A model generated the notes under the pieces. It made no database searches. It was given only the letters and a program-made list of their open reading frames with translations, and had not been told where the DNA came from. Position numbers and translations under genes: made by a program. Below, one piece after another: positions 7,645-49,831 of a stretch of DNA of 64,000 bases (the stretch's first letter is position 1; every line of letters begins with the position of its first letter). The stretch lies in the NCBI GenBank assembly GCA_919902995.1, contig CAKKSD010000032.1, positions 20,336 to 84,335 on the forward strand, read 5' to 3'. This DNA comes from Thermodesulfovibrionia bacterium (GTDB taxonomy: Bacteria; Nitrospirota; Thermodesulfovibrionia; JACRGW01).

Positions 7645-7662
7645 AAATTAATCCTCAGAAAA

Positions 7663-8016: not shown

Positions 8017-10170
8017 ATGATAAGAGGTCTATTCTCAAAAAGTTTGAGTCTTAAGGTTGCAATCACGGTAATAGCTGTTCTGACTGTGCTGGGCGGTGGT
8101 TCGTTTGTCTATATATACAATAAGATACAGAACCAGCTTATAGATGCCCAGAAAAGGGAGGCATTGACGCTCGCTTCTACCCTGAACAGTAGCCTTTCCG
8201 CCATGATGTTAAAGGGCGGAGGACTGAACCCTGAGGAGATACAGGTCATCTTTATAGCGTTATTAGAGAGAAAGGAGGTAAAAAATGCTGTTGTATACGG
8301 CCACAACGGCCGACGGGTATTTACAAATCATGAATCAGAGAGAAATACCATTATAAACAGAGATAAAGAGGAAGAATGTCTTGTCTGCCACAGGCTTTCG
8401 CCTGACAAGATGCCGCTTACGCAGTTTATAGATCTCCCAGGCAAGGGGAGAATTCTGCGCGCAGTGGCTCCGATAGTCAAGAAAGAGGCATGTCTCCAGT
8501 GTCATTTCACCGGTTCAAACATGGGTTTTGTTCTGCCCAATGAAAAATATCGCGGCATGGTGCTCGTTGACATGGAAACAAAAGAGATGGAATCCCAGAT
8601 GTTTGCAATCCTTGTGGCGGGAATAGCGACATATCTTGCCATAATATTAGCCGTATATTTTGTTTTGAGGAGGCTTGTAACACGACCTCTAAATGATATT
8701 GTAAATTCTGTTACTAAGATAGCTACCGGTGACCTGACTGCAGACATTAAGATTAGTTCAAAGGACGAGGTTGGTACCTTGGCTGTTGCCTTTAAGGAAA
8801 TGGCATCAAACTTAAGCGAAATACTTAAAAAAACAAAAACATTATTTACAAATGTAGATTCAGCAGTAAAGAAGATTGTAGATGGGGCAACCAGCATAAG
8901 GAGGGGTTCTGAAGACCAGGCAACCGCCATGACTGATGTCTCATTTTCTGTGGAAGGGCTTCATAAGATGGCACTCGACATTGCTAATGGTATGGAGCAG
9001 TCTTTGAAGCTATCTGAAAAGACATCGTCTTCTATCCTTGAGATGGCTCTATCTATTGAAGAGGTAGATGGAAATGTGGCTGAAATTACTTTCGCTGTTG
9101 AGGATACATCAACCTCTATAGAAGAGATCGCAAGCTCCCTCAAAGAAGTTGCTATTGGGACAGATAATATATCCAAAGGCGCAGACGAAATAGCCTCATC
9201 GCTTATCCAGATAGATACATCCGCAATGGAGATAGAGAGACATTCAGGTGAGGGAGCAGGACTTTCGAATGAAGTTGCGAGGGAAGGTGAGATGGGTCTA
9301 AAGGCTGTAGGACGTACCCATGCAGGGATGGAAACAATAAAGGGAGAAGTCAAAAAACTTGCAACGGTTATAGAAGAACTCGGTCAGAGGTCAAAGGAAA
9401 TTGGAAAGATCTTGAATGTAATTGATGATGTAGCAGTAGAAACCAACCTACTCGCATTGAATGCCACAATCCTCGCCGCCCAGGCAGGAGAACATGGTAA
9501 GGGTTTTGGTGTTGTAGCACATGAGATAAGGGAACTATCGGAGAGAACCTCTGCTTCAACAAAGGAGATTACTGGTATAATATCGGGTATTCAGAGCCAG
9601 ATAGGAAAGGCAGTGGTATCGGTTGAGGAAACGATTGCAAAGGTTACAGAGGGAGAAAAACTCTCTATAGACACAATCGGGATACTTGAAGGGATAACGG
9701 GAAGATTCAAGACATTCCAGGATATGAGTCTTAAGATTTCAAGGGCAACACAAGAACAAACAAGGGGGAGTAAGGAAGTAACACAGAACATGGAAGACAT
9801 TACTGCCACCATTCACCAGATTGCAAGGGCAACGCAGGAACAGTCACAGGGAAGTACCCAGATAGTAAATTCTTTAGAAAATATGAAAGAACTTATATCG
9901 CATCTTAAAAAGTTAACTTCTGAACAGGCAGAAGGCAGCAAGGTGATAGCATCTAATACGGAAAAGATGATGAGGTTTATCCAGGATATAAATGTTCTCT
10001 CTTCTGACCAGGAAAAGGAAAGCCAGAGGATATCTGCTGCTGTGATGGAAACCACGACTATCGCAGGTGCAGGAATGGAGAATACGAGTTACTTAGAAGA
10101 GATAGTTAATGTTCTGAAAAAGGAGGTCGAGACATTAAAAGAGGGGTTGGAACAGTTTAGATTGGAATAA
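8017..10170 (+). CDS. Methyl-accepting chemotaxis protein with periplasmic di-haem (2x CXXCH) sensor domain, HAMP and long MCP signalling domain
   Basis: TM1 LKVAITVIAVLTVLGGGSFVYIY, periplasmic CLVCHR and CLQCHF, TM2, HAMP, MCP signature LLALNATILAAQAGEHGKGFGVVAHEIRELSERT. Confidence 0.85.
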   Translation: MIRGLFSKSLSLKVAITVIAVLTVLGGGSFVYIYNKIQNQLIDAQKREALTLASTLNSSLSAMMLKGGGLNPEEIQVIFIALLERKEVKNAVVYGHNGRRVFTNHESERNTIINRDKEEECLVCHRLSPDKMPLTQFIDLPGKGRILRAVAPIVKKEACLQCHFTGSNMGFVLPNEKYRGMVLVDMETKEMESQMFAILVAGIATYLAIILAVYFVLRRLVTRPLNDIVNSVTKIATGDLTADIKISSKDEVGTLAVAFKEMASNLSEILKKTKTLFTNVDSAVKKIVDGATSIRRGSEDQATAMTDVSFSVEGLHKMALDIANGMEQSLKLSEKTSSSILEMALSIEEVDGNVAEITFAVEDTSTSIEEIASSLKEVAIGTDNISKGADEIASSLIQIDTSAMEIERHSGEGAGLSNEVAREGEMGLKAVGRTHAGMETIKGEVKKLATVIEELGQRSKEIGKILNVIDDVAVETNLLALNATILAAQAGEHGKGFGVVAHEIRELSERTSASTKEITGIISGIQSQIGKAVVSVEETIAKVTEGEKLSIDTIGILEGITGRFKTFQDMSLKISRATQEQTRGSKEVTQNMEDITATIHQIARATQEQSQGSTQIVNSLENMKELISHLKKLTSEQAEGSKVIASNTEKMMRFIQDINVLSSDQEKESQRISAAVMETTTIAGAGMENTSYLEEIVNVLKKEVETLKEGLEQFRLE

Positions 10171-10236: not shown

Positions 10237-10674
10237 ATGAATGAGTTAAACAGGAATTATCTTAACGATCTGAAAAACGATCATAAGATGGTTATAAAAC
10301 TCTTAGATGATATTAAAGGTTCTACTCAGACAAAGGATATCCAGGGAATTACATCCTTTATGGAACAGCTTAAAAATGGGCTCCTTGCACATTTGAAAAA
10401 AGAAGATGATAAGATATATGCAGACCTACTTAATGTTGCTAAAGAAAGGAATATTGAACTGGTAACAATAACAATAAATACATTCTCTACCGCAATGAAG
10501 GGAATAGCAGCAAGGGTTCTTAAGTTCTTCGATAAATATCCTAATAAAGACGAGATCGCAAGGCATGCAGCAGAGTTTTATAAGGATTTTCAGGAGGTCT
10601 ATGAAGATCTCCACAAGAGGGTTGATCGGGAAGAAAAGGTTTTATATCCGATGTATGAGAAGTATTGCTGCTGA
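10237..10674 (+). CDS. Hemerythrin-like (HHE cation-binding) domain protein
   Basis: 145 aa with spaced His/Glu pairs (DHKMV, AHLKKEDD, RHAAEF, HKRVDREEKVLYP). Family call from pattern only. Confidence 0.5.
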   Translation: MNELNRNYLNDLKNDHKMVIKLLDDIKGSTQTKDIQGITSFMEQLKNGLLAHLKKEDDKIYADLLNVAKERNIELVTITINTFSTAMKGIAARVLKFFDKYPNKDEIARHAAEFYKDFQEVYEDLHKRVDREEKVLYPMYEKYCC

Positions 10675-14760: not shown

Positions 14761-14880
14761 TAGGGTTTGGGATTCGAGGCTTTAGACGATACATGATCCA
14801 TGATGCCAGATGCATTATTCTGTATCCTCTATCCTGAATCGTGTATCCTGTATAACCTGACTATTTGCCTCCCTTGAATT
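14761..14880. repeat. TGTATCC / CATGATGC short-repeat cluster upstream of the mgtE-like gene
   Basis: gatacatgatccatgatgccagatgcatt ... tgtatcctctatcctgaatcgtgtatcctgtat. Related clusters at 39342-39420 and 40918-41045. Confidence 0.55.
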
Positions 14881-29179: not shown

Positions 29180-29554
29180 TTATTGTTTCAGATGCTGACT
29201 CACAATCTGTAAAAGTTCCTGTATCAGAATCGGCTTCGTTAAATAGGCGCTTGCCCCGAGCGATAATGCCCTTTTTCTATCCTCTTCAGCCCCTTCTGTT
29301 GTAATCATTATTATAGGGACATCCTTTTTGGCTGGATCTGCCCTTACGAGGCTAACAAACTTAAGACCATCCATAACAGGCATATTTATATCAACAAAAA
29401 GCATGTCAAAATTCTGACCTACCATCTTTTTCAGTGCATCAACACCATCAGTAGCCTCCACTACCTTTGCCTTCTGGATCCTTTTAAGGGCAAAGGTGAT
29501 CAGTTGCCTCATCGTCGGTGAATCTTCAACTATAAGAAAGTTTATATCTGACAT
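29180..29554 (-). CDS. cheY: CheY-like single-domain response regulator
   Basis: 124 aa receiver, phospho-acceptor D in FDMLFVDINMP, K in YLTKP. Confidence 0.85.
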   Translation of the reverse strand: MSDINFLIVEDSPTMRQLITFALKRIQKAKVVEATDGVDALKKMVGQNFDMLFVDINMPVMDGLKFVSLVRADPAKKDVPIIMITTEGAEEDRKRALSLGASAYLTKPILIQELLQIVSQHLKQ

Positions 29555-29585
29555 CTCTAATCCCCCTTCAAAATATGGTGCCTTC

Positions 29586-30410
29586 TCATAGAGGTTTCTC
29601 GTTTAGAAGGTCAATGAAAGTCTGGATTGTTGTCAGTTTTCCTTCGGATTGCGTATAGAGCTTCGAAGAAAATATTGCCGTTGCTGTATGGCCGACTAAA
29701 AGATTGAAGAGTTCATAGTCAACATTTATAAAGCCCTTTTTCTGTATAAGGAGTGAATAGATTGCTATTACTCCTATTACTTTTTCTTTGATCTTAAGGG
29801 GTATGCAGACTACTGGTTTAGAGAGGTCTTTTGAGGTGCGTCCTGGAACAAGTTCTTCAAAGTAACTTTCTCCTGTTATTACTACCTCTCCTATAATCCC
29901 TTCTCCAGACTTTACTTTAGGGATATCTTCCTTATTAAGTCCCTCAGAGGCGATCACTTTTAGCTCTTCTGTCGTTTCATCCACAATCATAATAGCAAAT
30001 CTTTCAGCCCCGATGAGATTTGATACTATCTCGATAACAGTTCTTAATACCTCATTAAAATCGAGTGTGGAGTGGAGCTGGTAGCTTGCCACATACAGGT
30101 TAGCAAGATTATTATTCTCCTCTTCTACATCCAGATATTTAGCAGCAAAGTCTTTATTCTCTGCCTCCACCTGTCTATACCTCTCTTGAATCTCTTTCTT
30201 CTCTTTCTCTAAGATACGACTACGCTCCTCAAGGAATTTTACCCTGTTCTTACCCCTTTCCTTCAGTTCTTCCTCAAGCTCAACCAATTTAAACCTTAAC
30301 CTCTCATTCTCTTTAAGAAGTTCCTGTGTAAATTCCTCACCTTTTCTGAATATCTGAAGGAACTCCTCAGACTTTTTCTGAATTTTGCCTTCTTCTTTTC
30401 TGAGTCCCAA
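29586..30410 (-). CDS. Coiled-coil + GAF domain protein
   Basis: N-terminal about 100 aa heptad-rich (LKENERLRFKLVELEEELKE..), C-terminal GAF-like fold (FAIMIVDETTEELKVIASEG ... VCIPLKIKEKVIGVIAIYS). Confidence 0.55.
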   Translation of the reverse strand: MGLRKEEGKIQKKSEEFLQIFRKGEEFTQELLKENERLRFKLVELEEELKERGKNRVKFLEERSRILEKEKKEIQERYRQVEAENKDFAAKYLDVEEENNNLANLYVASYQLHSTLDFNEVLRTVIEIVSNLIGAERFAIMIVDETTEELKVIASEGLNKEDIPKVKSGEGIIGEVVITGESYFEELVPGRTSKDLSKPVVCIPLKIKEKVIGVIAIYSLLIQKKGFINVDYELFNLLVGHTATAIFSSKLYTQSEGKLTTIQTFIDLLNEKPL

Positions 30411-30437
30411 GTTATACCTCCCCTTTTAGTACCAAAT

Positions 30438-30508
30438 AGAGATTGCTTTGGCTCCGCCTCGCAATGACAGATAGGGAGCGTCATTCCGAGCGAAGCGAGG
30501 AATCTCGT
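30438..30508. repeat. Family B palindromic repeat (diverged copy)
   Basis: gagattgctttggctccgcctcgcaatgaca ... gtcattccgagcgaagcgaggaatctc. Confidence 0.6.
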
Positions 30509-30511
30509 TAT

Positions 30512-31576
30512 TTATTTCTCCTCCGTCATACACCTCTTGATAATTTCCTCAGGTATTTCCTTCAACGGGAGTATCTTATCAGCAGCCCCTGCAGTTATAA
30601 CCTCCTGTGGCATCCCAAATACAACAGAGGTTTCCTCAGACTCTACAATGGTCTGACCCTTATGCTCTTTTATCGCCTTCATACCATCCTTCCCATCGTT
30701 TCCCATTCCTGTAAGAATAACACCAAGTACCTTTCTTCCATAAACTGCTGCGGAAGACTTCATCATCAGATCTACCGAAGGGACATACTTATCAGTATTA
30801 CTTTTCCTTCTTAGTATTGTCTTAATATTTTCTCCCTTCTTTTCCAGGACCATATGATAACCTCCAGGTGCTATAAGAATCTTCCCCCTTTCAACAGTAT
30901 CTTCATCCTCGGCCTCTTTTACATAGAGGGGAGATATGGTATCAAGTCTTTCAGCAAAATGTTTTGTGAATCCTTCAGGCATATGCTGGGATATAACGAT
31001 CCCTGCAGGAAGGTTTTTCGGGAGTCTCAAAAGGATTGCCTGAATTGCAGGAGGTCCACCTGTTGATGCACCGATCGCAATAAGTTCAACTCCCTTTGGC
31101 TCAGGAAATACCTCTTCAACCTCTCTATACTTACTGCTATCACTCGTAAGGAGATCAAGATTAGCCTTCATCTTAGACATTTCAAGATGTGCGACTGCGC
31201 CAATCTTCTCTATAAGTTCATCTTTGATCTTCTGCAGTTCAGGTGATGCCCTGGCTGTCGGCTTTAAAATAAAATCTACTGCACCAAGCTCAAATGCCTT
31301 AAGGAAACTCCTGTCATCCGCGTAGAAGCTTACTACTATGACAGGTAGAGGGGATTCTTTCATTACCCATCTAAGGAAAGCGAAGCCATCCATAACCGGC
31401 ATCGCTAAATCGAGTGTCACTACATCAGGCTTGAATTTTATCACCCTTGACATCGCCTCCTTACCGTTAGAAGCGGTGCCGATTACATCGATAAAGGATG
31501 TCTGCTGAAGCATCCTTGTTATTGTCTGGCGGCTATACGGAGAGTCATCTACAACAAGAACCCTTATCTTCTCCAT
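30512..31576 (-). CDS. cheB: Protein-glutamate methylesterase/glutaminase CheB (REC + methylesterase)
   Basis: N-terminal receiver plus C-terminal CheB catalytic domain (GASTGGP ... HMPEGFT ... DGKDG). Confidence 0.9.
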   Translation of the reverse strand: MEKIRVLVVDDSPYSRQTITRMLQQTSFIDVIGTASNGKEAMSRVIKFKPDVVTLDLAMPVMDGFAFLRWVMKESPLPVIVVSFYADDRSFLKAFELGAVDFILKPTARASPELQKIKDELIEKIGAVAHLEMSKMKANLDLLTSDSSKYREVEEVFPEPKGVELIAIGASTGGPPAIQAILLRLPKNLPAGIVISQHMPEGFTKHFAERLDTISPLYVKEAEDEDTVERGKILIAPGGYHMVLEKKGENIKTILRRKSNTDKYVPSVDLMMKSSAAVYGRKVLGVILTGMGNDGKDGMKAIKEHKGQTIVESEETSVVFGMPQEVITAGAADKILPLKEIPEEIIKRCMTEEK

Positions 31577-32448
31577 CCCATCTCTCCTGTTAATACCGAT
31601 CTGGTGGGTTTCTGGTAAACAAGGTCATTCTTGAAATGCCTCAGCATGAAGTCTGTAGAAATATTCATTAAAGACTCGGAGTGACCTAAAAGGAGATAAC
31701 CCTCTTCTGTGAGTCTATCATAAAAATTATTGATTACCTTCTTCTTCGTGTCCCTGTCAAAATATATAATTACATTCCTGCAGAATATCACATCCATCTT
31801 ACCAACAAATCTTACCTTGAACGGATCTACGAGATTCAGAAGACTGAAGTTCACCAAACTCCTTACAGGATCCACAATTCTGTAATTCCCTTCTCCCTCG
31901 TCTGTGAAATACTTTCTGATATAATGATCATCTATACTTCTGAAGGCGTTCTTTCTGTAAATTCCTCTCCTTGCTGCATGAAGAACCCTCTGGTTTATAT
32001 CACTCCCCAGTATCTCTATCTCCCATTCAGGCATGAGATTTTTCTCAAGGATCAATATCGCAATTGTATAAGGCTCTTCACCTGTAGAACAACCTGCTGA
32101 CCATATCCTGAGTCTTTTTCTATCCTTCTTCCTCTCACCGATTTCAGGGATGATCTCATCGCTTAATGCCTTAAGCTGAGAGAACTCTCTAAAGAAGTAG
32201 GTCTCATTTACTGTCAGAATTTCTATTACCGATGTCAGCTCTTCATCTCTTCTTTTATCATACATCAAAAAATGGTAATAATCCTCAAAGTTATTTAAGA
32301 GATAATTCTCTACCCTCCTCGATAGTCTCTTCTCTAGGAGGAATTTGGATCCATCGTCGAAATATATTCCACAATAATTCCTTATAAAATCACGGATGAG
32401 CCTGAATGTATCATCAGACATCTTGAACGGCTCCTCTATCCCTATCAT
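31564..32448 (-). CDS. cheR: Chemotaxis protein methyltransferase CheR
   Basis: 294 aa; CheR N-terminal helical domain and SAM MTase domain (RIWSAGCSTGEEPY). Confidence 0.9.
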   Translation of the reverse strand: MIGIEEPFKMSDDTFRLIRDFIRNYCGIYFDDGSKFLLEKRLSRRVENYLLNNFEDYYHFLMYDKRRDEELTSVIEILTVNETYFFREFSQLKALSDEIIPEIGERKKDRKRLRIWSAGCSTGEEPYTIAILILEKNLMPEWEIEILGSDINQRVLHAARRGIYRKNAFRSIDDHYIRKYFTDEGEGNYRIVDPVRSLVNFSLLNLVDPFKVRFVGKMDVIFCRNVIIYFDRDTKKKVINNFYDRLTEEGYLLLGHSESLMNISTDFMLRHFKNDLVYQKPTRSVLTGEMGWRR

Positions 32449-34445
32449 TTCTTTCCTTTAAGTATATCATCCGCTGTCTTTCTGACCACTTCGTCTTCAT
32501 CTGTCTCAGCTACTTTAACGATATATTCTTTAACCTCCTTCTCAGAAAATCTCCCCAATATTTCCAATGCTGCCTTCCTTACACCCCAGTCTCTATCCGA
32601 AAGAAGAGGGAGAAGCTCCTTTAAGATTTCAATAGCCTGAACCTGATTAAAGGCCAGTTTAGAAAGTGTTCTGATGGTGATCTTTTTTAGTTCAGGGTCT
32701 TTTTCTCTAAGTAGTCTTAAGAGGTACGGAAGTGCTGACATATCTCTTATCTCTCCCAATGCCTCGATTACAGAGATCCTTACCATGTGGTCTTTATCAT
32801 CAAGGAGTTCGATAAGCGGAAGGACGGCATCTGGATTCTTAAGTTTTCCAATACCTCTTGCAACTGATGCTCTTACCCTGCTATTTTCATCTTTAAGAAG
32901 TATGATAAGGGAATCAATCCCCTTTTTATAACCAATTTCTCCGATGGCAATGGCCGATGCCATTTTTACCCGTGGTTTCTCATCGGTCAAGGCTGAAATT
33001 AAAAATCTTCCTGCCTCATCTCCCCCAATCATACCGAGTGCCTTAACAGCCGCCTCCCTTACTTCAGGTGATTCATCTTTGATAACAAAGCCAAGGGCTG
33101 AGACCGCCTTCTTCGCCCTTATCCTGCCTAAGATCAGGGCTATATTCTTTCTAAGATTTGATACCTTTGAAGAAAGCATAGGAAGGAGTTGTTCTACCTC
33201 AGCCCCTATCTCGACTATGGCAGTTACGGCAGATTCCTGGACATCATCGTATTCATCATTAAGGAAATCCATGAGTGGGGTTATAGCCCTTCTATCCTTT
33301 ATCTTCCCTAAGGCTATCATTGAGTTTCCCCGTACATGCCCGTCTTCATCAGATAGGGATTTTATCAGTGCCTCAACAGCATTACTATCACCTATCTCTC
33401 CTAAGAGATGGGATATACATCTCCTGATAATATTATCTGGGCTATCTAAGAAAGGGATAAGGGCATGGATAACACCACCCCTTCCGAGAATTAAGAGTGC
33501 CTCCATTATATCTTCTTGAAGTTCGTCTTCCTGGAGAAGATTTACAAGTGGCTCAACAGCCCTTTCATCCCCCACCCATCCTAAAAGCCTTACGGATGCT
33601 AATTTTATCTGAGCCTTCTCTCTTTTGAGTGACTGGAGCAGATAGTCTGATATCTCTCTATCAATATTTTCCTTTATAATTGTGATGACCTCATTATCCC
33701 GAGGGTTTTTCTTAGAAATATCTAAAATAACCTGCATTGCGATTTCTCTGATTGACCTCGAAGGATCCTTCAAGAATTTTATAACCGGAGCCAGTGCCCT
33801 TTTATCCCCAAGGGCACCAAGACCTTTTAAGGCTGCCTCTCTCAGTGGTTTCTCTTTAAGGGCATCAAGAAGTGGCTCGAGAACCCTTGAATCTCCAATA
33901 TTACCGATTGCAATAGCAGCAGGATAGCTAAGCCAGAGTTCCTTCTTTTTAAATATCTTCAAAAGGGGCTCTATTGCCTTCTCATCTCTCATCCTACCGA
34001 TATGTTCTATTGCAGAGAATCTGACATTATCATCCCTATCTGTTAATGCCTTAATAAAGAGAGGAGTAGCCATACTATCTCCAACTTCTCCAAGTATATC
34101 GACGATGAATTTTCTGACATCTTGATGAGCGTCCTCAAAACTGTTTATAAGAAATGGAACTCCCTCTTTACCTATCCCTATGAGTGCCTCAATAGCAGAA
34201 TTTCTCACCCCCGGGTTATCCTGAATACTAAGAGCTGAGATAAGGGCATCTATCACCCTTTTACCACCGATCTTGAGGAATGATTCAACAGAGGTCTTCC
34301 TGACACGCCAATCAGCATCTCCCAAGGTCTTAAGGAGGTGAGGGATAGATTCCTCACCATAATCAGCAAGCCCCAGGGAAGCTAATCTTCTTGTTTCCAC
34401 ATTTTCATCATCAAGGTTTTTTATCAGATCGGCGAAACTATCCAA
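32445..34445 (-). CDS. HEAT/PBS-lyase repeat protein (about 20 repeats)
   Basis: 666 aa of tandem about 31-aa units (VRxxAxxALGxIGDxxAVxxLxxLLxD). Embedded in the che operon. Confidence 0.75.
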   Translation of the reverse strand: MDSFADLIKNLDDENVETRRLASLGLADYGEESIPHLLKTLGDADWRVRKTSVESFLKIGGKRVIDALISALSIQDNPGVRNSAIEALIGIGKEGVPFLINSFEDAHQDVRKFIVDILGEVGDSMATPLFIKALTDRDDNVRFSAIEHIGRMRDEKAIEPLLKIFKKKELWLSYPAAIAIGNIGDSRVLEPLLDALKEKPLREAALKGLGALGDKRALAPVIKFLKDPSRSIREIAMQVILDISKKNPRDNEVITIIKENIDREISDYLLQSLKREKAQIKLASVRLLGWVGDERAVEPLVNLLQEDELQEDIMEALLILGRGGVIHALIPFLDSPDNIIRRCISHLLGEIGDSNAVEALIKSLSDEDGHVRGNSMIALGKIKDRRAITPLMDFLNDEYDDVQESAVTAIVEIGAEVEQLLPMLSSKVSNLRKNIALILGRIRAKKAVSALGFVIKDESPEVREAAVKALGMIGGDEAGRFLISALTDEKPRVKMASAIAIGEIGYKKGIDSLIILLKDENSRVRASVARGIGKLKNPDAVLPLIELLDDKDHMVRISVIEALGEIRDMSALPYLLRLLREKDPELKKITIRTLSKLAFNQVQAIEILKELLPLLSDRDWGVRKAALEILGRFSEKEVKEYIVKVAETDEDEVVRKTADDILKGKK

Positions 34446-34469
34446 GATTTTTTCTCCTAAATACTCTCT

Positions 34470-34610
34470 GTCATTCCTGCGGAAGCAGGAATCCAGAGAA
34501 ACAAAAAACTGGATTCCGCATCAAGTGTCGAAGACCCGACCCATAGGGCGGAATGACAGAAATAAGGTAACCCTGTAGCAAGCTACAGGGAATTATCAAG
34601 TTGATTAAAT
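34470..34610. repeat. REP-like cluster (gtcattcctgcggaagcaggaatccag; ctggattccgcatcaag..ggcggaatgac; ccctgtagcaagctacaggg + ggaattatcaagtt)
   Basis: Family A members plus a tail motif shared with 6150-6200. Confidence 0.7.
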
Positions 34611-34624
34611 CCGTGAAATCAATC

Positions 34625-35098
34625 TTATGCCTTTTCAGTATCTTCTATTGATTCAAGAACAAGCATCTCTTCGGTAGAGAGGATCTTATCGAGATTCAGT
34701 ATTATTATTAACTTTTCCCCTACCTTTCCAACACCTTCGAGATATTCGGTTTTTATTCCCTTAACGATAGTTGGGGGAGACACTATATCTTCCCTTGAGA
34801 GACAGCGTACATCACTTATTCCATCCACCTGAAGTCCAACTATCTCTTCCCCTACCCGGATTAATAATATCCGTTCATTCCCATGTCTGTCAGTAGGTTC
34901 AATACCGAATCTTTTTCTGAGATCTACTATAGGGATAACCTTTCCTCTCAGGTTTAACACCCCCTCTATAAAATCCGGACTCATAGGAAGTCTTGTTACC
35001 TTTTGTGGTCTAAGAATCTCAACCACTCTCATTATATCTATCGCATATTCCTCTTCACCTACGGAAAAAATAGCTAATCTGGTTTCTTGATCTTCCAT
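34625..35098 (-). CDS. cheW: Chemotaxis coupling protein CheW
   Basis: 157 aa single CheW domain. Confidence 0.9.
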   Translation of the reverse strand: MEDQETRLAIFSVGEEEYAIDIMRVVEILRPQKVTRLPMSPDFIEGVLNLRGKVIPIVDLRKRFGIEPTDRHGNERILLIRVGEEIVGLQVDGISDVRCLSREDIVSPPTIVKGIKTEYLEGVGKVGEKLIIILNLDKILSTEEMLVLESIEDTEKA

Positions 35099-35115
35099 AT
35101 AAATCAGTCCTTGAG

Positions 35116-36810
35116 TTATTTTACCTTAAATACCTCAACTACTCTTTTCAGGTCTTCAGCATCCTTCCTGATGCCATTCATAGCAAGATCTATCTCTGAG
35201 GCTATATCCATTCCTTCCACAGCCACGGTCTTAACCTCGTCGATAGACCGAAGGATGGATTCAGTCCCGATTCTCTGTTCTTCTGTTGCCTTTGATATTA
35301 GCCGTGTCTTCTCCACAGTACTTTCAACAACTGAGCCTATCTGCCTGCTCCCACTTGACTGGTCTTCCATAGCCTTTTTCACATGTTTAGATATACTATC
35401 TACAACCTCCATTGCCTTCACAATCTGGTCTGTCCCGTTCCTGAGTTCACGGATTGCATTCGCAATATTAACTATCATATCTTTTACTCTTTCAACAGAT
35501 TCAGTCACCTGTTTCACACCCCGCGCCTGTTCAACAGCTGCCCCTTCTATGCCCTTTGCTGCAACCTGGGACTGTTGTGAAGAATGGATGATCGTCCTTA
35601 AGGCATCACCTACTGCGTAAACCAGTTTATTACCATCATCTACCCTTATAAGACCTTCCTTCATTATATCCACAGTATCCTGTGTCTCCTGCTGGATCGT
35701 AACTATCAGATCGGATATCTCCTTTGTAGAAGCAGAAGTCTTCTCTGCAAGTTCCCTGATCTCTTCTGCCACAACAGAAAAACTTTTACCGTGTTCCCCT
35801 GCCTGGGCAGCCAAGATTGCTGCGTTTAATGCCAGGAGGTTTGTCCTGGAGGTTACTGCATCAATAACAGCAACGATCTTATTTATCTCCAATGATCTCT
35901 CTTTCAGGCGGTTTACAGAATCCCCTGCTTTTTTAACGGAATCTCTAACCCTGTCCGTACCATCTATAGCATCAACAATAGAGAGCATTCCGAACTCCGA
36001 TGCATCAATAAGAACCTTCTCTGCAAGCCTTGCGGATTCCTTTGTGTTATCTACTACGGTTCCTATAGCGGCATTAATCTCTAATGTGGCTGCCCCTGTC
36101 TCTGATATAGTCTCTTCCAGGAACTCTGCACTTCTTGCAAGTTCTCTGGCAGAAGCCACCATCTCCTCTATGGAAGCCAATGTTTCAGAGATTGTATCTG
36201 AAAGTCTGAAGGTATTTTCGGCAACCTCTTCTATCGAGGAACCTATCTCAAGTACAGAAGATGAAGTTTCATCTGCAGATGTAGAAAGTGTAGATACAGA
36301 GTTTGCAATTTCCCTGATAGAAAAATTTAACTCCTCTACTGAGGAAGCGGTCTTCTCAACAGCCTCAACCTGGCTCCTTGCACCTTCCGCCATTCTCTTA
36401 GAGTTAAGTCCTATTTGTCCAGATGCAATTGAAACATTAACAGCAGATGTCTTGACCTTTCTTACTAACTCACCGAAATTTTCGATTATTCTGTTTATCG
36501 CCCTCTCTATATATGTAAACTCATCACCCGAATTAATCTTTATCATAGTTGTAAGGTCTCCCTCAGAAACCTTCTTGGTAGCCTCAACCACTTTTCCCAA
36601 TGGTTTTATCACTGCCTTCCTCAACAGAACCTGAAGTGCCACTGCCAAGAAGATCACACCTGCAAAAGCTATAAGTATAAGTTGTGGTATATTCTTCTTC
36701 AGTTCCAATGCTAAGACTATAAGGAAGCCCATCTCGATACATAGGATTGCAACTGTTAGAAAGAATAATTTTCCTGCTAATTTTCCTTTAAAGCTTCCAG
36801 GTTCCGCCAT
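35116..36810 (-). CDS. Methyl-accepting chemotaxis protein (2 TM, no periplasmic sensor, HAMP + MCP signalling)
   Basis: MCP signature NLLALNAAILAAQAGEHGKSFSVVAEEIRELAEKT. Confidence 0.85.
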   Translation of the reverse strand: MAEPGSFKGKLAGKLFFLTVAILCIEMGFLIVLALELKKNIPQLILIAFAGVIFLAVALQVLLRKAVIKPLGKVVEATKKVSEGDLTTMIKINSGDEFTYIERAINRIIENFGELVRKVKTSAVNVSIASGQIGLNSKRMAEGARSQVEAVEKTASSVEELNFSIREIANSVSTLSTSADETSSSVLEIGSSIEEVAENTFRLSDTISETLASIEEMVASARELARSAEFLEETISETGAATLEINAAIGTVVDNTKESARLAEKVLIDASEFGMLSIVDAIDGTDRVRDSVKKAGDSVNRLKERSLEINKIVAVIDAVTSRTNLLALNAAILAAQAGEHGKSFSVVAEEIRELAEKTSASTKEISDLIVTIQQETQDTVDIMKEGLIRVDDGNKLVYAVGDALRTIIHSSQQSQVAAKGIEGAAVEQARGVKQVTESVERVKDMIVNIANAIRELRNGTDQIVKAMEVVDSISKHVKKAMEDQSSGSRQIGSVVESTVEKTRLISKATEEQRIGTESILRSIDEVKTVAVEGMDIASEIDLAMNGIRKDAEDLKRVVEVFKVK

Positions 36811-36851
36811 CGCAACTTTCCTCCAATCGGTTCTCCTAAAAAACCGTTAAT

Positions 36852-39341
36852 CTACTTTCCAATCTTCTGCATAATCCTTCCTATTTCACTATAATCATCG
36901 TCGTGTGCTTCGACGAATCCTGTCTGTTTCGGATTTAGGGTTTTCAGAACCTGCCTTGTCTCTTCCTTTTGATTGTTGATGTCGAGAAGGGTCTTTTTAA
37001 GTTTTTCCTCTACTTTTGGGTCAATGTCTTTAGCTACACATATATTAAATCCCGGGATATCTGTAGATACCTTGATAATCTTCAGCCCCTGAGGGATGAA
37101 CTTATAGGCAATAGATTCGAGCATTCCGCCAGCATCAAACTCCCCCTTTAGAACGGACTGGGCAACATTATCATGATGTCCCAGGTATCTATAAGACCTA
37201 AGGTCTTTAAGATCTATTCCAACCTCGAGAAGCATATTTCTTGGGATGATATGGCTTGTTGTCGATTTTGGATCACCAAAAGCAAAGGTCCTACCCCTTA
37301 TATCTTCAACCCTATTAACTTTGCTTCCGTCTTTTGTTACTATTACAGAATTGGTGAAAGGTTTTCCATCAAGGACTTCTTTAACAATGGGCCTAACCCC
37401 ATATCTCTGGCTTGCCTCGATATAGGTAGTGGGTGTCATATAACAGATCTGGGTAACACCTTTGCCTAAATCCTCAATAGTTCCTTCAAAATCGAGGGCC
37501 AGCTTAAGACTTACCTTCATACCAAGGGCTATCGATAGATATTCAGTCAAGGGGGCAAATTTCCTGAACATCTCTGCCGGGGACTCTAAGGGTATAACAC
37601 CCATCCTTAAACCCTTTTCTCGGATATAAACCTCGCTTATCCTAAATCTCCCAGTTTCTGCCTTAAGGAGGTCTGTAGCCTTTGTAAGGGTAAATATCCT
37701 CTGGTTTATCTCGAAGGCGATATCCACAGTTTTCTTTGGTAGCTCCTTTGCCCCTTCTATTGAATTCACTATCAAATCACTTCCAATCTTCTGCTCCTGT
37801 ATGGAATTTGACATGTCCTGAATCTTTTCCGTAACAATCTCAACAGCCTGGGTTATCTGCTTACTTGCCTTAGATTGCTCAGAAGTAGCAGATCTGACCT
37901 TCTCTGTAATATCCCTCATCTTCTCAGCCGCAAGGACTATCTGTTCAACCCCTTTTGTCTGTTCAGAGATAGCGTTAGAAATATGAACTATCATATCCCT
38001 TATCCTGTCCATCGCCCCAACGACCTGCTTTATGCCCTTGGCCTGTTCTATAGTCGCCTTCTCTATCGAAGATGCCATCTCAGAAGAAATCTTCGCACTT
38101 TCCAGTATCTGTTTTAAGGCATCTCCAGCCTCCTTGCTAAGCCTGACCCCTTCTTCCACCTTACTGAGTCCCTCTCCCATCGCCTCTACCGCACCTTTAG
38201 CCTCTCCCTGAACAGAGGCAATGAGGTCTCCTATCTCTTTTGTAGAAGCCGCTGTCTTTTCAGCCAACTCTTTAATCTCCTCCGCTACTACTGAGAAACC
38301 CTTGCCATGTTCCTTTGCCTGGGCAGCCAGGATAGCAGCATTAAGGGCAAGGAGGGATGTCTGGTCAGTAACCTCATCTATAACATTAATGACCTTCCCT
38401 ATCTCTTCGCTTCTGCTGCCAAGCCTGTTTATCAATTCCGCGGTCCTCTCCACCTTCTCTTTTATCCCTTTCATTCCCTCTATTGTCTTTTCTATAGAGG
38501 CCATTCCGAGCTGTGAGGCATCTTCCTTAACCTTATCGGCAAGCCTCGCACTCTCTCTATAGGCGATTTCAACCTCTTTTATAGTAGCGTTAATCTCCTC
38601 AACAGCAGAAGATGTCTCTTCTGACGCCTTAGAAAGGACCTCTGCACTTTGAGCCACTTCCTTTACTGAGGCATTCATCTCATCTATAGAAGAGGCTGTT
38701 CCCTCTACAGAAGTGGATAGTGTAACGGTTGAATTTGCCACTTCATCCACCGACGACATCATTTCGAGTATAGAAGATGAGGTCTGTACAGCCGAAATAG
38801 ACAACTCATCTATAGAAGAAGCAATCCCCTTGATTTCTGCATTCAATTCTTCAACCGATCCAGTAATTGTCTCAATAGAACCAAGCTGTATCTGGGCAAA
38901 TTCTATTAACCTCTTTGAATCATCGGATACCTGAGAACCCACCCTTTCTACTTCTTTTGATACATCATTTATTCCACCGATCATGCTCTCCATATGGAAT
39001 ATAGATTTATTTATTGTATTAGCCAGATCACCTATTTCATCTCTTGATACAATCCCAGAAATCGGAGTGAGATTTCCCTCAGAGACTTTCTTCATAGAAT
39101 CTACCAGTCTTTCAATGGGGTCAATGACCATCCTTCTCAAAAGAACCTGAAGGATTATCGCAAAGAAGATAGCTATAGTTGATGCCAATAGGAAAAGCTG
39201 GACTATATCCCTCTTTAATTCTAATGTCAGGATAACAAGGAATACCATCTCGAGGCCCAGGATTGCGACCACCAGACTGAGGATTTTTATTCTTAGTTTT
39301 CCCTTAAAGATATTAAGTAGACTCATAATCAATTGATACAT
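36852..39341 (-). CDS. Methyl-accepting chemotaxis protein fused to a C-terminal PhnD/SsuA-like (phosphonate-type) substrate-binding domain
   Basis: 2 TM + HAMP + MCP signalling domain (LLALNAAILAAQAKEHGKGFSVVAEEIKELAEKT), then about 290 aa beginning GLRMGVIPLESP.. with hallmarks of the PhnD-like periplasmic-binding fold. Confidence 0.8.
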   Translation of the reverse strand: MYQLIMSLLNIFKGKLRIKILSLVVAILGLEMVFLVILTLELKRDIVQLFLLASTIAIFFAIILQVLLRRMVIDPIERLVDSMKKVSEGNLTPISGIVSRDEIGDLANTINKSIFHMESMIGGINDVSKEVERVGSQVSDDSKRLIEFAQIQLGSIETITGSVEELNAEIKGIASSIDELSISAVQTSSSILEMMSSVDEVANSTVTLSTSVEGTASSIDEMNASVKEVAQSAEVLSKASEETSSAVEEINATIKEVEIAYRESARLADKVKEDASQLGMASIEKTIEGMKGIKEKVERTAELINRLGSRSEEIGKVINVIDEVTDQTSLLALNAAILAAQAKEHGKGFSVVAEEIKELAEKTAASTKEIGDLIASVQGEAKGAVEAMGEGLSKVEEGVRLSKEAGDALKQILESAKISSEMASSIEKATIEQAKGIKQVVGAMDRIRDMIVHISNAISEQTKGVEQIVLAAEKMRDITEKVRSATSEQSKASKQITQAVEIVTEKIQDMSNSIQEQKIGSDLIVNSIEGAKELPKKTVDIAFEINQRIFTLTKATDLLKAETGRFRISEVYIREKGLRMGVIPLESPAEMFRKFAPLTEYLSIALGMKVSLKLALDFEGTIEDLGKGVTQICYMTPTTYIEASQRYGVRPIVKEVLDGKPFTNSVIVTKDGSKVNRVEDIRGRTFAFGDPKSTTSHIIPRNMLLEVGIDLKDLRSYRYLGHHDNVAQSVLKGEFDAGGMLESIAYKFIPQGLKIIKVSTDIPGFNICVAKDIDPKVEEKLKKTLLDINNQKEETRQVLKTLNPKQTGFVEAHDDDYSEIGRIMQKIGK

Positions 39342-39420
39342 GATCCATGATACATGATGTCTGAAAGTTTCGTGTATCTTGTATCATGCATCTTGTATCC
39401 CTTTCCTTATATCTTCATGA
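39342..39420. repeat. TGTATC/CATGAT short-repeat cluster upstream of the MCP-PhnD gene
   Basis: gatacatgatccatgatacatgatg ... gtgtatcttgtatcatgcatcttgtatccc. Confidence 0.55.
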
Positions 39421-40090
39421 CCTCTTCGATATTAAGGAGGCCAATGAATCTATCATCCACCAGGCTTATCCCTTCGAGAAAGTCTGCCTCTATACCTGTG
39501 ATAATAGTAGGAGTAGAATCTATAGACTCCCTAAGGAGTTTAATGACTCCAAGAACCTCATCAACCACAGCACCTATAGTCTCGTTCCTTATTGAGAATA
39601 TAAGAATTCTTCTCTTTTTATCCTGCTGAATTCCTTCCAGACCCAATCTTTCCTTGAGATCAAAGACAGGGATGATCTCCCCCCTTAAGGATGTTACACC
39701 CTTTAGATAGGAAGGTGTTCTCGGAACAGGTGTTATCTCGAGAGGTTTGAGTATTTCCCTTACATAATCTATCTTCACACCGTAAATCTCATCCCCAAGC
39801 CTGAAGGATATTACCTCAACTATTGACTCTTCTTCGCTGTATGGTAAAGAAGGAATCTCCTGAATCTCTTCCCTCACCTCTTTGGTTAACTCAACCTCGC
39901 CTGATTGTAAAAGTATCACTGTCTCTCCCTTTTCAATTGATATTGCCTCTTCTGTCCTCTTCCCTTCTGCTTGAAGATTTGATTCAGCATCCTCAGTCTT
40001 TCCCCGAACCTCTTTCTGTGTTAAGTCCTGGGGTTTTTCTTCCTTCGCCTTCTCCTGCTGTGCCTTTTTCCTAATATTCACAAGATCCAT
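39407..40090 (-). CDS. CheW-domain protein with about 80-aa charged N-terminal extension
   Basis: C-terminal 150 aa is a CheW fold. N-terminal region is K/E-rich and low complexity. Confidence 0.75.
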   Translation of the reverse strand: MDLVNIRKKAQQEKAKEEKPQDLTQKEVRGKTEDAESNLQAEGKRTEEAISIEKGETVILLQSGEVELTKEVREEIQEIPSLPYSEEESIVEVISFRLGDEIYGVKIDYVREILKPLEITPVPRTPSYLKGVTSLRGEIIPVFDLKERLGLEGIQQDKKRRILIFSIRNETIGAVVDEVLGVIKLLRESIDSTPTIITGIEADFLEGISLVDDRFIGLLNIEEVMKI

Positions 40091-40104
40091 CTAATTCTCC
40101 TTGT

Positions 40105-40917
40105 TCATCCTTTTAGGGCAAAGCCTAACTCCCCTGCAACATCCTCTATTATATCTTCCTCTATCAGACTCACACCTCTTCCAAAACCTTCGAGGAGTGC
40201 ATATGTACAGAGATTATTAATCTTCCTCGGTATTCCTCCTGAATGTCTGTGGACAGATCTGATGGCACTTTCCGTGAAGGTCCTTTCCTCCCTTCCTGCT
40301 ATAGATATTCTATGATTTATATAGGCATAAACCTCTTCTTCTGTGAGTCCTTCAAGGTGATAGAGCAGACCTATCCTCTGTCTCAGAGATTGATATGACT
40401 TCCCCTCAAGTCTTTTCCTTAAATCCGGTTGTCCTATAAGGACTATTGAGAGAAGGTTTGTATCATCGAGCTGGAAATTTGTAAGCAGCCTGATCTCTTC
40501 AAAGGTATCTTTACTTGGTATCAGCTGTGCCTCATCGATGATAATAATAGGTACATTACCCTCTGTATAAAGATTATAGAGAGAATTATAGATAACTTCC
40601 AGGATATTATTTCTGGATCTCGAAGGGCGGTCAATGCCAAATCCGCTTGCAAGGGTCTTTAACAGGTTAACCGGACTCAGACGGGGATTAATAATTAAGA
40701 CAATCTTATGGGAACTATTGAGGGAGTCTATGAGCGCCCTCGAAAGTGTGGTTTTCCCGGAGCCAATCTCTCCTGTGAGCAGAATAAACTCTTTCTCCTC
40801 AACTCCATACTGTAATCTCGCAAGTGCCTCGGCATGACCTTTACTCATATAGAGGAATCTCGGATCAGGGGTCTTACTGAATGGTTTCATCTTAAATCCA
40901 TAATATTCTTCGTACAT
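40105..40917 (-). CDS. ExeA/GspA-like AAA+ ATPase (AAA_22), no peptidoglycan-binding domain
   Basis: Walker A GEIGSGKTT, Walker B IIIIDEAQ, N-terminal YGFKMKPFSKTPDPRFLY typical of the ExeA family. Confidence 0.7.
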   Translation of the reverse strand: MYEEYYGFKMKPFSKTPDPRFLYMSKGHAEALARLQYGVEEKEFILLTGEIGSGKTTLSRALIDSLNSSHKIVLIINPRLSPVNLLKTLASGFGIDRPSRSRNNILEVIYNSLYNLYTEGNVPIIIIDEAQLIPSKDTFEEIRLLTNFQLDDTNLLSIVLIGQPDLRKRLEGKSYQSLRQRIGLLYHLEGLTEEEVYAYINHRISIAGREERTFTESAIRSVHRHSGGIPRKINNLCTYALLEGFGRGVSLIEEDIIEDVAGELGFALKG

Positions 40918-41045
40918 ATCAAAATCCTAGTTCAAAAATGATTCAAGATGCATGATGCCTGATGCACGTATCGTACTTCTGTCATTCTGTATCAGGCATC
41001 TTTTATCGGGCATCCTGCATCCTGTATCGTGCATCTTATTTTAAA
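40918..41045. repeat. CATGATGC / TGTATC repeat cluster with inverted repeat atgcctgat..atcaggcat between cheA and the exeA-like gene
   Basis: gatgcatgatgcctgatgcacg ... ctgtatcaggcatc ... gcatcctgcatcctgtatcgtgcatct. Confidence 0.55.
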
Positions 41046-43070
41046 TCATCTCCTTCTCACCATTGCCTCATCAATAAGGGCCTCTACATCTAAAACGAGT
41101 ATAACCTTATACTTTCCCATTTCTGTTGCCCCTGAAATCCCGGGGACACCCTTGAGGCTTTCTCCAAGAGATTTTATTACAATCTCCTGCTGTCCTATAA
41201 AATCACTCACCACTAAGCCGATCCTTCTCTCTCCAAAACCTACTACTACAATATTAATATTCTCTGTATCCTCACCAGGAGGCAGATTGAATGTCCTATC
41301 CAGTCTCATAAGAGGTAGCATCTCTCCCCTCAGTTCCAAGACCTCCCTCTTCTCTATGCTCTGCACCTTCTGGAAAGGAATCATCAGGTTTTCAGATACC
41401 GAGTTAATAGGGATCGCAAATATCTCCTTTGAAACCTTTACAATAAGTGCTTTAATGATCGCTAAGGTGATAGGAATTGTAATTGTGAAGGTAGTCCCCT
41501 TGCCAAACTCTGTGTCAATTTCAATGAAGCCACTAAGATCAGAGACCCTTGTCTTCACCACATCCAACCCCACACCACGTCCCGACATCTCTGTCACGTC
41601 TCTTTTAGTCGTAAAACCAGGGAGAAAGAGAAGTTCCAGTATTTCTCTCTTATTCAATACGGCATCCCTCTCGACGAGATCTCTCTCCATAGCCTTTTTA
41701 ATGACTGTGTCCGTGTCAATGCCTGCTCCGTCGTCTTCGATAGTTATGGCAACATGATTACCTCTTGGAAAGGCGCTGAGCCGTACAGTACCCCTCTCTT
41801 TTTTACCTGATCTTCTCCTGATATCAGGGGTTTCGATACCATGATCGATAGCATTTCTTATAATATGCATAAGCGGATCGGCTGTCTCCTCTGCCAGGAA
41901 TTTATCCAGTTCTGTCTCTTCGCCATAAAATTCCAGATCCACTTCTTTTTCTATACCTTGGCTGTAACGTCTCACAACCTGAGAAAGTCTTGAGAAGATC
42001 TGTCCTACAGGTATCATTCTCACCTCCATAATCTCATTCTGTAATGCGGTGAGTCTCTTACCTAATGACTGTGACACCCTTTGAAGGTCCATAGAAAGGA
42101 TGCTGTAGCCCTGAAGTTGTTTTAGTTCCTTACTTATTCTTCCAACGGCGGCCCTCGTGAGAACAAGTTCACCTACTGTATTCATAAGCCTATCTAACCT
42201 TTCAATATCTACCCTTACCGTCTTGCTCGTACTTTTTAATGATATATCTGAGGTAGAAGGAGTTCTGACCCTTGGTTCGTCTGATCTCTCCGAAGTTTGT
42301 ATGTCTTCAACATTTCCTACCCCTTTTTTCCTGCCAACCTCTTCAACAACAACCTTTCCCTTTCCTACTCTTTGGCTTATCACTTCAAGGTCTTCACTGC
42401 TACCTATGAGAAGGGTAAACTGGATTCCTTCCTGAGGAGATACCCCTGATGAAGGCAAGGTTGTAATAACCTCTCCTATGGTCTTCACTTTGTTATTCAG
42501 ACCTTCCAGATCTGTATCGAAACTCTGCAGATCAAAACTTGCCTTCAGAAGAAAGATATTTCTGCCTTCTTTAATATTGGTCTTCAGGCGGTACTCTTCA
42601 TATTCGGTGAGGACCTTAAGGATTGCCTGGTCGATATCAAGGGTATCTATGATAGAAATCTCAGAACTTTTTGACTTATCTCTAATAAATAGATCGATGT
42701 CGGAAAGTATGCCTTCAATATCAGTTACCTCTTCTCCCTTTTCTGCATCTCCAAGAAGTTTCCTCAATATGCCTAATCCTCCTATAATAAGATTGAGGAC
42801 ATCACGGTTAAGGTCTATCTTACCGAGACGGAGAGTATCAAGAAGGGATTCAAGACGGTGACTCAACTCGGACATTCTATTTAGGCTAAATATACCTGAT
42901 AGACCTTTTAGGGAATGGACTCCCCTAAAGATGGCATTCAGGGTATCAGGATTAAATTTCTCTTGGTAGGTTTCTTCTAATTCTTCAATATTATTGTTGA
43001 TTTCTGTCAGGAGATCTTCTGCCTCACCTAAAAACTCCTTCCTTGATCTCTCACCACCTATATCTGGCAT
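41046..43070 (-). CDS. cheA: Chemotaxis histidine kinase CheA
   Basis: Hpt (HSLKGLSG), dimerisation, HATPase_c (DDGAGID; GRGVGLDVV) and C-terminal CheW-like domain. Confidence 0.9.
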   Translation of the reverse strand: MPDIGGERSRKEFLGEAEDLLTEINNNIEELEETYQEKFNPDTLNAIFRGVHSLKGLSGIFSLNRMSELSHRLESLLDTLRLGKIDLNRDVLNLIIGGLGILRKLLGDAEKGEEVTDIEGILSDIDLFIRDKSKSSEISIIDTLDIDQAILKVLTEYEEYRLKTNIKEGRNIFLLKASFDLQSFDTDLEGLNNKVKTIGEVITTLPSSGVSPQEGIQFTLLIGSSEDLEVISQRVGKGKVVVEEVGRKKGVGNVEDIQTSERSDEPRVRTPSTSDISLKSTSKTVRVDIERLDRLMNTVGELVLTRAAVGRISKELKQLQGYSILSMDLQRVSQSLGKRLTALQNEIMEVRMIPVGQIFSRLSQVVRRYSQGIEKEVDLEFYGEETELDKFLAEETADPLMHIIRNAIDHGIETPDIRRRSGKKERGTVRLSAFPRGNHVAITIEDDGAGIDTDTVIKKAMERDLVERDAVLNKREILELLFLPGFTTKRDVTEMSGRGVGLDVVKTRVSDLSGFIEIDTEFGKGTTFTITIPITLAIIKALIVKVSKEIFAIPINSVSENLMIPFQKVQSIEKREVLELRGEMLPLMRLDRTFNLPPGEDTENINIVVVGFGERRIGLVVSDFIGQQEIVIKSLGESLKGVPGISGATEMGKYKVILVLDVEALIDEAMVRRR

Positions 43071-49693: not shown

Positions 49694-49831
49694 AAAGACT
49701 TTGTGGTTAACTTAAGTATGGTTCTGTTATTGAAAATGAGTTTTTGTGATGCCTTTAAAGTAGCAAACAGCAACATCCAATAAAACAAGGATTGAAACTT
49801 AGACCGTATACCCACTTGCAAACCCTTCCTT

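Follow-up and report, generated by a model that had tools for sequence, protein, structure and literature searches.

Why should the gene for an AAA+ ATPase of the ExeA/GspA type stand between cheA and a cheW gene? The question is raised by a chemosensory operon in a 64,000-nucleotide stretch of DNA from a Thermodesulfovibrionia bacterium (contig CAKKSD010000032.1, positions 20,336 to 84,335), which we call the window. On its minus strand, at 29180-43070, eleven closely spaced genes make up a complete chemotaxis-like set by Pfam and NCBIfam matches. A preliminary description of this DNA had recognized the core Che set (CheA, CheWs, CheR, CheB, CheY, and two methyl-accepting chemotaxis proteins, or MCPs), and we recovered all eleven genes where it had placed them. 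Pfam and motif matches also agreed with its report of an ExeA-type ATPase between cheA and an extended CheW, with Walker A and B motifs kept and no peptidoglycan-binding domain. We found that the arrangement is more general than first described. Comparison of related loci indicates that the ATPase is not peculiar to the window genome, that the operon type is widespread in Nitrospirota and Geobacter relatives, and that its ATPase and peptide-bearing CheW are conserved together as a so far uncharacterised module. The near-invariant N-terminal helix and disordered linker of the CheW beside the ATPase are new. Beyond the earlier description, we add this CheW motif, the 64-heptad class of the receptors, a cytoplasmic PhnD-like domain, and a link to the Geobacter beta-group and Esn systems.

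The cheA-ATPase-cheW module

We scanned one genome per species, which gave at least 592 relatives of the ATPase, and mapped the window proteins onto the best 80 species-level loci. These belonged to Nitrospirota/Thermodesulfovibrionia, Desulfuromonadaceae, Geothermobacter, and other delta-proteobacterial metagenome-assembled genomes (MAGs). Among the matches listed, ATPase homologs at 57 to 65% identity were mostly from Nitrospirota MAGs. We found that cheA lies immediately upstream of the ATPase gene in all 75 testable loci, from Nitrospirota and Desulfuromonadota, and that a CheW is encoded immediately downstream in 65 of 70. The usual junctions in relatives are overlapping stop and start codons, at -8 nt between cheA and the ATPase gene and -20 nt between the latter and cheW. 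Median identity to the window protein was 59% for the ATPase, 47% for CheA, 34% and 44% for the CheWs, and 37.5% for the HEAT protein; only the GAF protein, CheR, and the terminal CheY were conserved comparably to the ATPase. In an independent metagenome scan anchored on the GAF gene, all loci that extended beyond the first CheW had the ATPase gene, which was complete in 9 and truncated by the end of the locus in 3, with 0 counterexamples. The preliminary description had held that absence of the gene from orthologous che clusters would speak against an array role. The gene was present throughout the Nitrospirota and Desulfuromonadota loci and lacking in one Polyangiaceae cluster.

In its full form, the cluster appears to run PATAN protein, CheY, CheA, ATPase, peptide-bearing CheW, (64-heptad MCPs), CheW, HEAT protein, CheR, CheB, coiled-coil/GAF protein, and CheY. 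The PATAN (PatA_N) protein is encoded just upstream of CheY-CheA in most relatives (most of loci L010 to L086), for example, at 6205-7494 in the Desulfuromonas locus L087, 5041-6729 in the Geobacter MAG locus L175, and 6217-7398 in the Nitrospirae locus L006. It has a weak GAF_2 match in L006 and is fused to a receiver in Geobacter. Both the PATAN gene and the first CheY gene are missing from the window and from an 80%-identical relative (L003), and the window lineage appears to have lost this head of the cluster. In three lineages (L001/L013, L012, and L032), only (PATAN)-CheY-CheA-ATPase is found, without a CheW or the remaining cluster downstream. The ATPase may be linked most tightly to CheA, since these three lineages keep CheY-CheA-ATPase alone.

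The ATPase carries the ExeA/GspA N-terminal motif FGLxxxPFxxxPDPxFLY. Its Walker A (G49-T57), Walker B (D128/E129), sensor-1 residue (N147), and GGIPRxIN element with R231 are invariant in 70 orthologs. It is a soluble protein in which we found no hydrophobic segment, and Pfam gave no match to a PG_binding domain; the archetypal GspA region, a C-terminal transmembrane segment and a periplasmic peptidoglycan-binding domain, is missing. MshM-like and Alteromonas-type GspA proteins likewise lack this region (PMC9239104). The best curated family is TIGR03015, the XrtA/PEP-CTERM system-associated ATPase (261.1 bits; E, 1e-77). The alignment is end to end (ATPase residues 1 to 264 against profile positions 1 to 266 of 269), but the score is below the family cut-off of 324.5 and the gene context differs, with no XrtA/PEP-CTERM or polysaccharide genes around the ATPase gene in the window. 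No type II secretion system (T2SS) genes (gspB, secretin) were found among the scanned reading frames of the 64-kb window either; the neighbours are cheA and cheW.

The AlphaFold2 (AF2) model of the ATPase has a mean confidence score (pLDDT) of 92, and its best Foldseek matches are MuB, Orc1/Cdc6, RuvB, and TnsC, which are AAA+ proteins acting on DNA, several of them as switches or loaders. A PDB sequence search gave no close solved homolog, only weak matches to MuB and TnsC, and Pfam gave no ParA/CbiA/MinD match. The model places the protein among AAA+ ATPases of the MuB/TnsC/Orc-Cdc6 fold type rather than the ParA/MinD type. In the literature that we searched, we found no ExeA-like or AAA+ ATPase described as a chemosensory component.

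The extended CheW of the window begins with a helix bearing MDLVNIRKKAQ. We found the start MD(I/L/V)xx(I/A)RKK in 65 of 66 distinct orthologs, and wider relatives begin with M(D/N)(L/I/F)xxIRKKA. A six-frame scan of all fetched loci for the motif returned 88 occurrences, 84 of them in extended CheWs and 3 in truncated copies. Between the motif and the CheW domain lies a charged low-complexity segment whose length varies among orthologs; the charged extension noted in the preliminary description is borne out by 14 K/R and 23 D/E among the first 90 residues. AF2 predicts a helix at residues 3 to 17, disorder at 19 to 84, and a confident CheW fold at 90 to 225, a layout that would make the extension a short linear motif on a flexible tether. 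Docking of the helix onto its own CheW domain had no support, with a helix pLDDT of only 60 to 68 and residues 19 to 84 disordered. The motif probably acts near the array baseplate, because a tether of 66 residues is too short for routine membrane reach from a 64-heptad receptor tip. In the Polyangiaceae cluster that lacks the ATPase gene, the first CheW has a degenerate N terminus of 26 residues that starts MADLVRSRARG. This case gives thin phyletic support, in the expected direction, to a coupling of motif and ATPase.

A similar pairing is seen in GspA/ExeA and GspB/ExeB. These ATPases belong to the same AAA_22 family and share the FGLxxxPFxxxPDPxFLY motif, and their partner gene lies directly downstream and encodes a protein that opens with a short amphipathic basic helix. 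Over the ATPase domain, the window protein and a GspA from Ideonella have 40% identity; the gene for the Ideonella GspB follows after 3 nt (7647 to 7651), and its product starts MSYILDALRRADAERE. More generally, gspB is usually co-located with gspA (PMC9239104), and the ATPase domain of ExeA is required for ExeB complex formation (PMC4098917). A GspB N terminus (MSYILDALRRA) and the CheW motif (MDIAKIRKKAK) show a short resemblance. The systems differ in that the window ATPase has neither the transmembrane segment nor the peptidoglycan-binding domain, T2SS genes are not nearby, and its partner is a cytoplasmic CheW, whereas theirs is a bitopic GspB with an HR domain.

Tyrosine autokinases encoded beside ExeA-like ATPases in polysaccharide loci start MEKLQAALEKARQ, MSRIEEALARAARE, and MEIIARALQRARS. 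Neighbours of ExeA-like ATPases in L172 (6381), L169 (about 4871), and L173 (3150) have the GspB-like start M-x-x-hydrophobic-x-x-A-L-x-(R/K)-A-(R/K); those in L172 and L169 are annotated as tyrosine autokinases, and the L173 open reading frame (ORF) carries no annotation. The shared start may be a general partner motif of the ExeA ATPase family.

Receptors, candidate output proteins, and related chemosensory systems

Both MCPs of the cluster have two transmembrane helices joined by a minimal loop, a HAMP domain, and a long hairpin, and neither has a periplasmic sensor. The hairpin arms flanking the tip are 231 and about 225 residues in the 829-aa MCP (tip E344) and 226 (N-terminal) and 225 (C-terminal) residues in the 564-aa MCP (tip E339). 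A third MCP gene, outside the operon at 8017-10170, encodes arms of 224 and 225 residues. Judged by these arm lengths, all three receptors appear to belong to class 64H, the longest receptor class, with about 64 heptads. At residues 571 to 828, approximately, the 829-aa MCP has a PhnD-type solute-binding domain (TIGR01098, 146 bits against a cut-off of 112). This domain is predicted to be cytoplasmic because it is fused directly to the end of the C-terminal hairpin arm. Chemoreceptors do not usually carry a sensor domain there, and most of the Nitrospirota loci encode the same fusion.

Two CXXCH haem-binding motifs mark the periplasmic domain of the third MCP. Its gene is followed by a hemerythrin gene (10237-10674), and a multihaem cytochrome c gene is nearby (6376-7266). 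The shared receptor class makes it likely that this MCP is an extra input to the same pathway, and the haem motifs together with the hemerythrin and cytochrome neighbours suggest that the input is redox or oxygen.

The HEAT and GAF/coiled-coil proteins named in the preliminary description were both present by Pfam. The former (666 aa) has a 31-residue period and about 20 repeats, and its gene keeps its position before cheR in relatives. The GAF protein is among the best-conserved products of the cluster, with a median identity of 64.5% in the genome-scan loci and 54 to 67% in an alignment (A3) that includes Desulfuromonadota. In Myxococcus, the HEAT protein Cpc7 is described as binding CheY7 (Darnell et al. 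2014, as cited in PMC11514114). This parallel, together with gene position and conservation, makes the HEAT and GAF proteins likely CheY targets.

One of the closest described systems is the beta-group che cluster of Geobacter and other delta-proteobacteria, which is mcp-less (PMC2577667, PMC8235581). The loci of Desulfuromonas sp. AOP6 (L087) and a Geobacter MAG (L175), which match it in gene content, were compared with the window by tblastn maps. Both loci run PATAN protein, receiver, CheA, ATPase, extended CheW, receiver, CheW, Zn-ribbon receiver, HEAT, CheR, CheB, GAF, and receiver, and they share with the window the order CheA, ATPase, extended CheW, CheW, HEAT, CheR, CheB, GAF, and CheY. 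Their extended CheWs start M(D/N)LxEIRKKA, and identity to the window proteins is 54 to 58% for the ATPase and 57 to 61% for the GAF protein. In contrast to the window, the delta-proteobacterial loci have no MCP genes, have two extra receivers (one of them the Zn-ribbon receiver), and start at PATAN(-REC) and CheY. The window cluster includes two 64H MCPs, and PATAN and the first CheY are missing from it. With its two MCPs and with Nitrospirota MAGs as its closest relatives, the window operon falls outside the beta-group as defined in PMC2577667 (no mcp, delta-proteobacteria only).

Neither of our ATPase homolog searches had the Geobacter sulfurreducens protein GSU2221 among the matches listed, and the Geobacter MAG locus was used instead. 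By numbering, GSU2212-2224, which we take to be the G. sulfurreducens beta-group cluster, would hold the genes esnB and esnC. Gene order and annotation suggest that GSU2221, which stands between them, is an ATPase of the window type. In transposon sequencing (Tn-seq) of electrode growth, the scores were -2.4 for GSU2220 (esnB, a CheW), -2.1 for GSU2221 ("ATPase"), and -2.8 for GSU2222 (esnC, a CheA); that study took only esnB and esnC further, and in it esn mutants did not colonise electrodes (PMC5585712). EsnA, a Geobacter receptor, is annotated as class 40H (PMC5585712). Preliminary data also link the Geobacter beta-group to the extracellular matrix (PMC2577667).

In the Nitrospirae GWC2_57_13 locus (L006/L021, 11665-15542), genes for a multihaem cytochrome, an MtrB/PioB-like porin, and an ABC-type binding protein lie between the extended CheW and the MCPs. 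Gaps of similar order (about 4 to 7 kb) occur at the same place in L046, L049, L062, L064, L085, and L086. The cytochrome/porin insertion may indicate a connection with extracellular electron transfer, as for the Esn system of Geobacter.

Two Myxococcus xanthus systems bear comparison as well. Che7 also has a HEAT/PBS-lyase-type repeat protein in a che cluster, and it differs in having a desaturase. Che8 comprises CheY, CheA, two CheWs, two genes not listed as che, CheR, CheB, and CheY (PMC3945109). By locus tags and protein lengths alone, Che8 resembles the Polyangiaceae cluster, in which we detected no GAF homolog in a comparison that left out a 268-aa ORF after cheB.

Possible roles of the ATPase at the array

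By analogy with GspA and GspB, we consider it most likely, with a probability of roughly 0.55, that the CheW peptide brings in the ATPase, which then takes part in assembling or organising the array. According to this model, the receptors would respond to signals from the cytoplasm or the membrane. Together with CheA and both CheWs, they would make up an array about 35 nm below the membrane that is adapted by CheR and CheB. CheY~P would act on the HEAT protein, the GAF protein, or both, as CheY7 does on Cpc7 in Myxococcus. The N-terminal peptide of the extended CheW would bring the ATPase to the array baseplate, paralleling the GspA/ExeA ATPase domain with its downstream-encoded GspB. There, the ATPase would serve in array assembly, stabilisation, or organisation as an ATP-dependent switch or oligomer; equally, it could couple the array to a partner machine.

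Several observations weigh against recruitment by CheW followed by array assembly. In 5 of 70 loci, CheY-CheA-ATPase has no adjacent CheW, and the tightest partner may be CheA. The Polyangiaceae cluster is of the same type without the ATPase, and the array type can therefore exist without it. Che8 likewise seems to have no room for an ATPase or GAF gene, by locus-tag arithmetic alone (PMC3945109). The Tn-seq effect of GSU2221 may be polar on esnB. The likeness of the CheW motif to GspB covers only about 10 residues and could be due to chance. GspB of Escherichia coli K-12 lacks the motif (start, MFEFYIAAREQ); it proved uninformative as a test of the motif because it is an atypical short GspB (PMC9239104). 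Finally, other members of the ExeA family are found in secretion, pilus, and exopolysaccharide (EPS) loci, which favours an output role.

Such a role is the main rival. Here, the ATPase would be an effector that controls an envelope machine (EPS export, a type IV pilus, or a secretin), held at the array by the extended CheW and gated by the kinase state. We regard this as possible but clearly less probable than array assembly. The closest curated family is that of the XrtA/PEP-CTERM exopolysaccharide-locus ATPase, and homologs at 33 to 40% identity occur in EPS loci (Rhodovulum, N. vulgaris) and beside GspB. The PATAN protein that heads the cluster in most relatives fits as well, since PATAN regulators bind the type IV pilus motor in cyanobacteria. 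So do the Geobacter phenotypes, which are a preliminary tie of beta-group mutants to the extracellular matrix (PMC2577667) and the failure of esn mutants to colonise electrodes (PMC5585712). However, the ATPase has no membrane segment, and EPS, pilus, and secretin genes do not adjoin the cluster in the window or in most relatives. The gene stands strictly between cheA and cheW and overlaps their codons, which speaks for array stoichiometry over a remote target.

In a variant that we judge unlikely, the ATPase would mark the pole or the nucleoid and the extended CheW would tether arrays there. The preliminary description had drawn this analogy to Vibrio ParC/ParP, in which a che cluster encodes, beside an ATPase, a CheW-like protein that has a linker and an N-terminal region for partner binding (PMC5706961). 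The domain layout fits the analogy: Pfam and AF2 give the extended CheW the ParP-like layout of N-terminal region, linker, and C-terminal CheW domain, a statement about domains and not about partner binding. The ATPases differ, in that ParC is a ParA/MinD-type ATPase and the window ATPase is AAA+, and we detected no relationship in sequence. Foldseek matches do include DNA-bound AAA+ proteins (MuB-DNA, the ShCAST TnsC filament, and Orc1/Cdc6 on origin DNA), which makes the nucleoid a conceivable scaffold. On the other hand, we know of no ExeA-family member that is a positioning ATPase, the pI of 6.1 gives no sign of general DNA binding, the receptors are anchored in the membrane, and polar landmark genes are not nearby.

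A last proposal, that the AAA_22 gene was left behind by a mobile element as a TniB/IstB-like helper ATPase without a signalling role, might appeal because many plasmid-borne homologs at 26 to 33% identity adjoin DDE transposases, but it is effectively refuted by the conservation data, that is, an identical position in 75 of 75 testable loci across two phyla, a median identity (59%) above that of CheA or either CheW, codon overlap with the neighbours, and invariant catalytic motifs, and there is no transposase in the window cluster.

A broader form of the array assembly model is more speculative, and we hold it only tentatively. ExeA-family ATPases might be general peptide-recruited assembly ATPases, each recognising an N-terminal amphipathic basic helix (on GspB, tyrosine autokinases, or the extended CheW); here, the ATPase would be an ATP-consuming core component that builds, remodels, or positions 64-heptad lattices. 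In the usual view, chemosensory arrays self-assemble from their receptors, CheA, and CheW, and to our knowledge, only ParA-type positioning proteins act on them as ATPases. The placement of a soluble AAA+ ATPase between cheA and a peptide-bearing CheW, apparently in hundreds of species, points to an unstudied energy-dependent step in array assembly or output, and the module may also explain the general role of ExeA/MshM-type ATPases. G. sulfurreducens offers a direct test, as GSU2220-2222 looks like the same module by gene order and annotation and its ATPase gene has been overlooked so far.

Operon layout, intergenic repeats, and surroundings

The features of the operon and the separate third MCP gene are listed in Table 1. 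Pfam detected no P2 domain in CheA. A D-Tyr-tRNA deacylase gene lies on the same strand 50 nt upstream of the operon, with divergent mreBCD-pbp2-rodA beyond it, and a TauE exporter gene lies downstream of the operon. Among the window ORFs scanned against Pfam (about 50 of 60), we found none for flagella, pili, or secretion, and none for an auxiliary phosphatase (CheZ, CheC, CheX, and CheV being the auxiliaries considered). We read the operon as a complete, probably non-flagellar, chemotaxis-like signalling system without a visible link to flagella.

Table 1. Chemosensory genes of the window and the two repeat-bearing gaps
Feature	Position	Strand	Remarks
cheA	41046..43070	-	674 aa; P1 Hpt, P3 H-kinase_dim, P4 HATPase_c, P5 CheW-like (Pfam)
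cheA-ATPase gap	40918..41045	-	heptamer-array hairpin repeat at 40940-41035
ExeA/GspA-family AAA+ ATPase	40105..40917	-	270 aa; AAA_22, E 7e-25 (Pfam)
Extended CheW	39407..40090	-	227 aa; CheW domain at residues 92-225 (Pfam)
Extended CheW-MCP gap	39342..39406	-	heptamer-array hairpin repeat at 39335-39399
MCP	36852..39341	-	829 aa; HAMP, MCPsignal, C-terminal Phosphonate-bd, E 3e-62 (Pfam)
MCP	35116..36810	-	564 aa; 2 transmembrane helices, HAMP
Canonical CheW	34625..35098	-	157 aa; CheW, E 5e-39 (Pfam)
HEAT/PBS-lyase-type repeat protein	32445..34445	-	666 aa; HEAT_2, E 4e-110
cheR methyltransferase	31564..32448	-	294 aa; without TPR (Pfam)
cheB methylesterase with receiver domain	30512..31576	-	354 aa (Pfam)
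Coiled-coil/GAF protein	29586..30410	-	coiled coil about 1-110, GAF 116-246 (Pfam)
Terminal single-domain CheY	29180..29554	-	124 aa
Orphan third 64-heptad MCP	8017..10170	+	717 aa; tip E492

Both gaps contain tandem GATRCAN heptamers followed by an inverted array, and the resulting hairpins have folding energies of -26 and -32 kcal/mol (z, -5.7 and -3.3). A third copy lies outside the operon, between unrelated genes, at 14788-14847, making three copies per 64 kb. In the 80%-identical relative, the corresponding gaps measure 53 and 17 nt and lack the element, and most relatives have the 8-nt overlap in place of the cheA-ATPase gap. Among 167 related loci (2.4 Mb), it occurred in 1 other distinct locus (L092/L095, 15501-15574, fetched twice). 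The preliminary description had read these repeat-rich gaps as internal promoters or regulatory sites. The repeats are real, but a sigma-70 scan placed no promoter-like sites in the gaps and found no enrichment overall (34 sites against 33.2 expected). A conserved regulatory RNA or operator was likewise rejected, as no Rfam family matches the hairpins and as nearly all of the 167 loci, like the 80%-identical relative, lack them. We concluded that the repeat is a lineage-specific dispersed hairpin repeat and not a conserved feature of the operon type. The hairpins might affect mRNA stability or processing.

Elsewhere in the window, the rodA/radical-SAM intergenic region has an orphan match to the Rfam CRISPR-DR7 model at 49760-49798 (+; 42 bits), ending GATTGAAAC, with no second copy in the window at up to 3 mismatches. 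An ordinary transfer-messenger RNA gene (tag peptide ANQELALAA) and the adjacent smpB are at 2463-2812 and 2953-3435, both on the minus strand.

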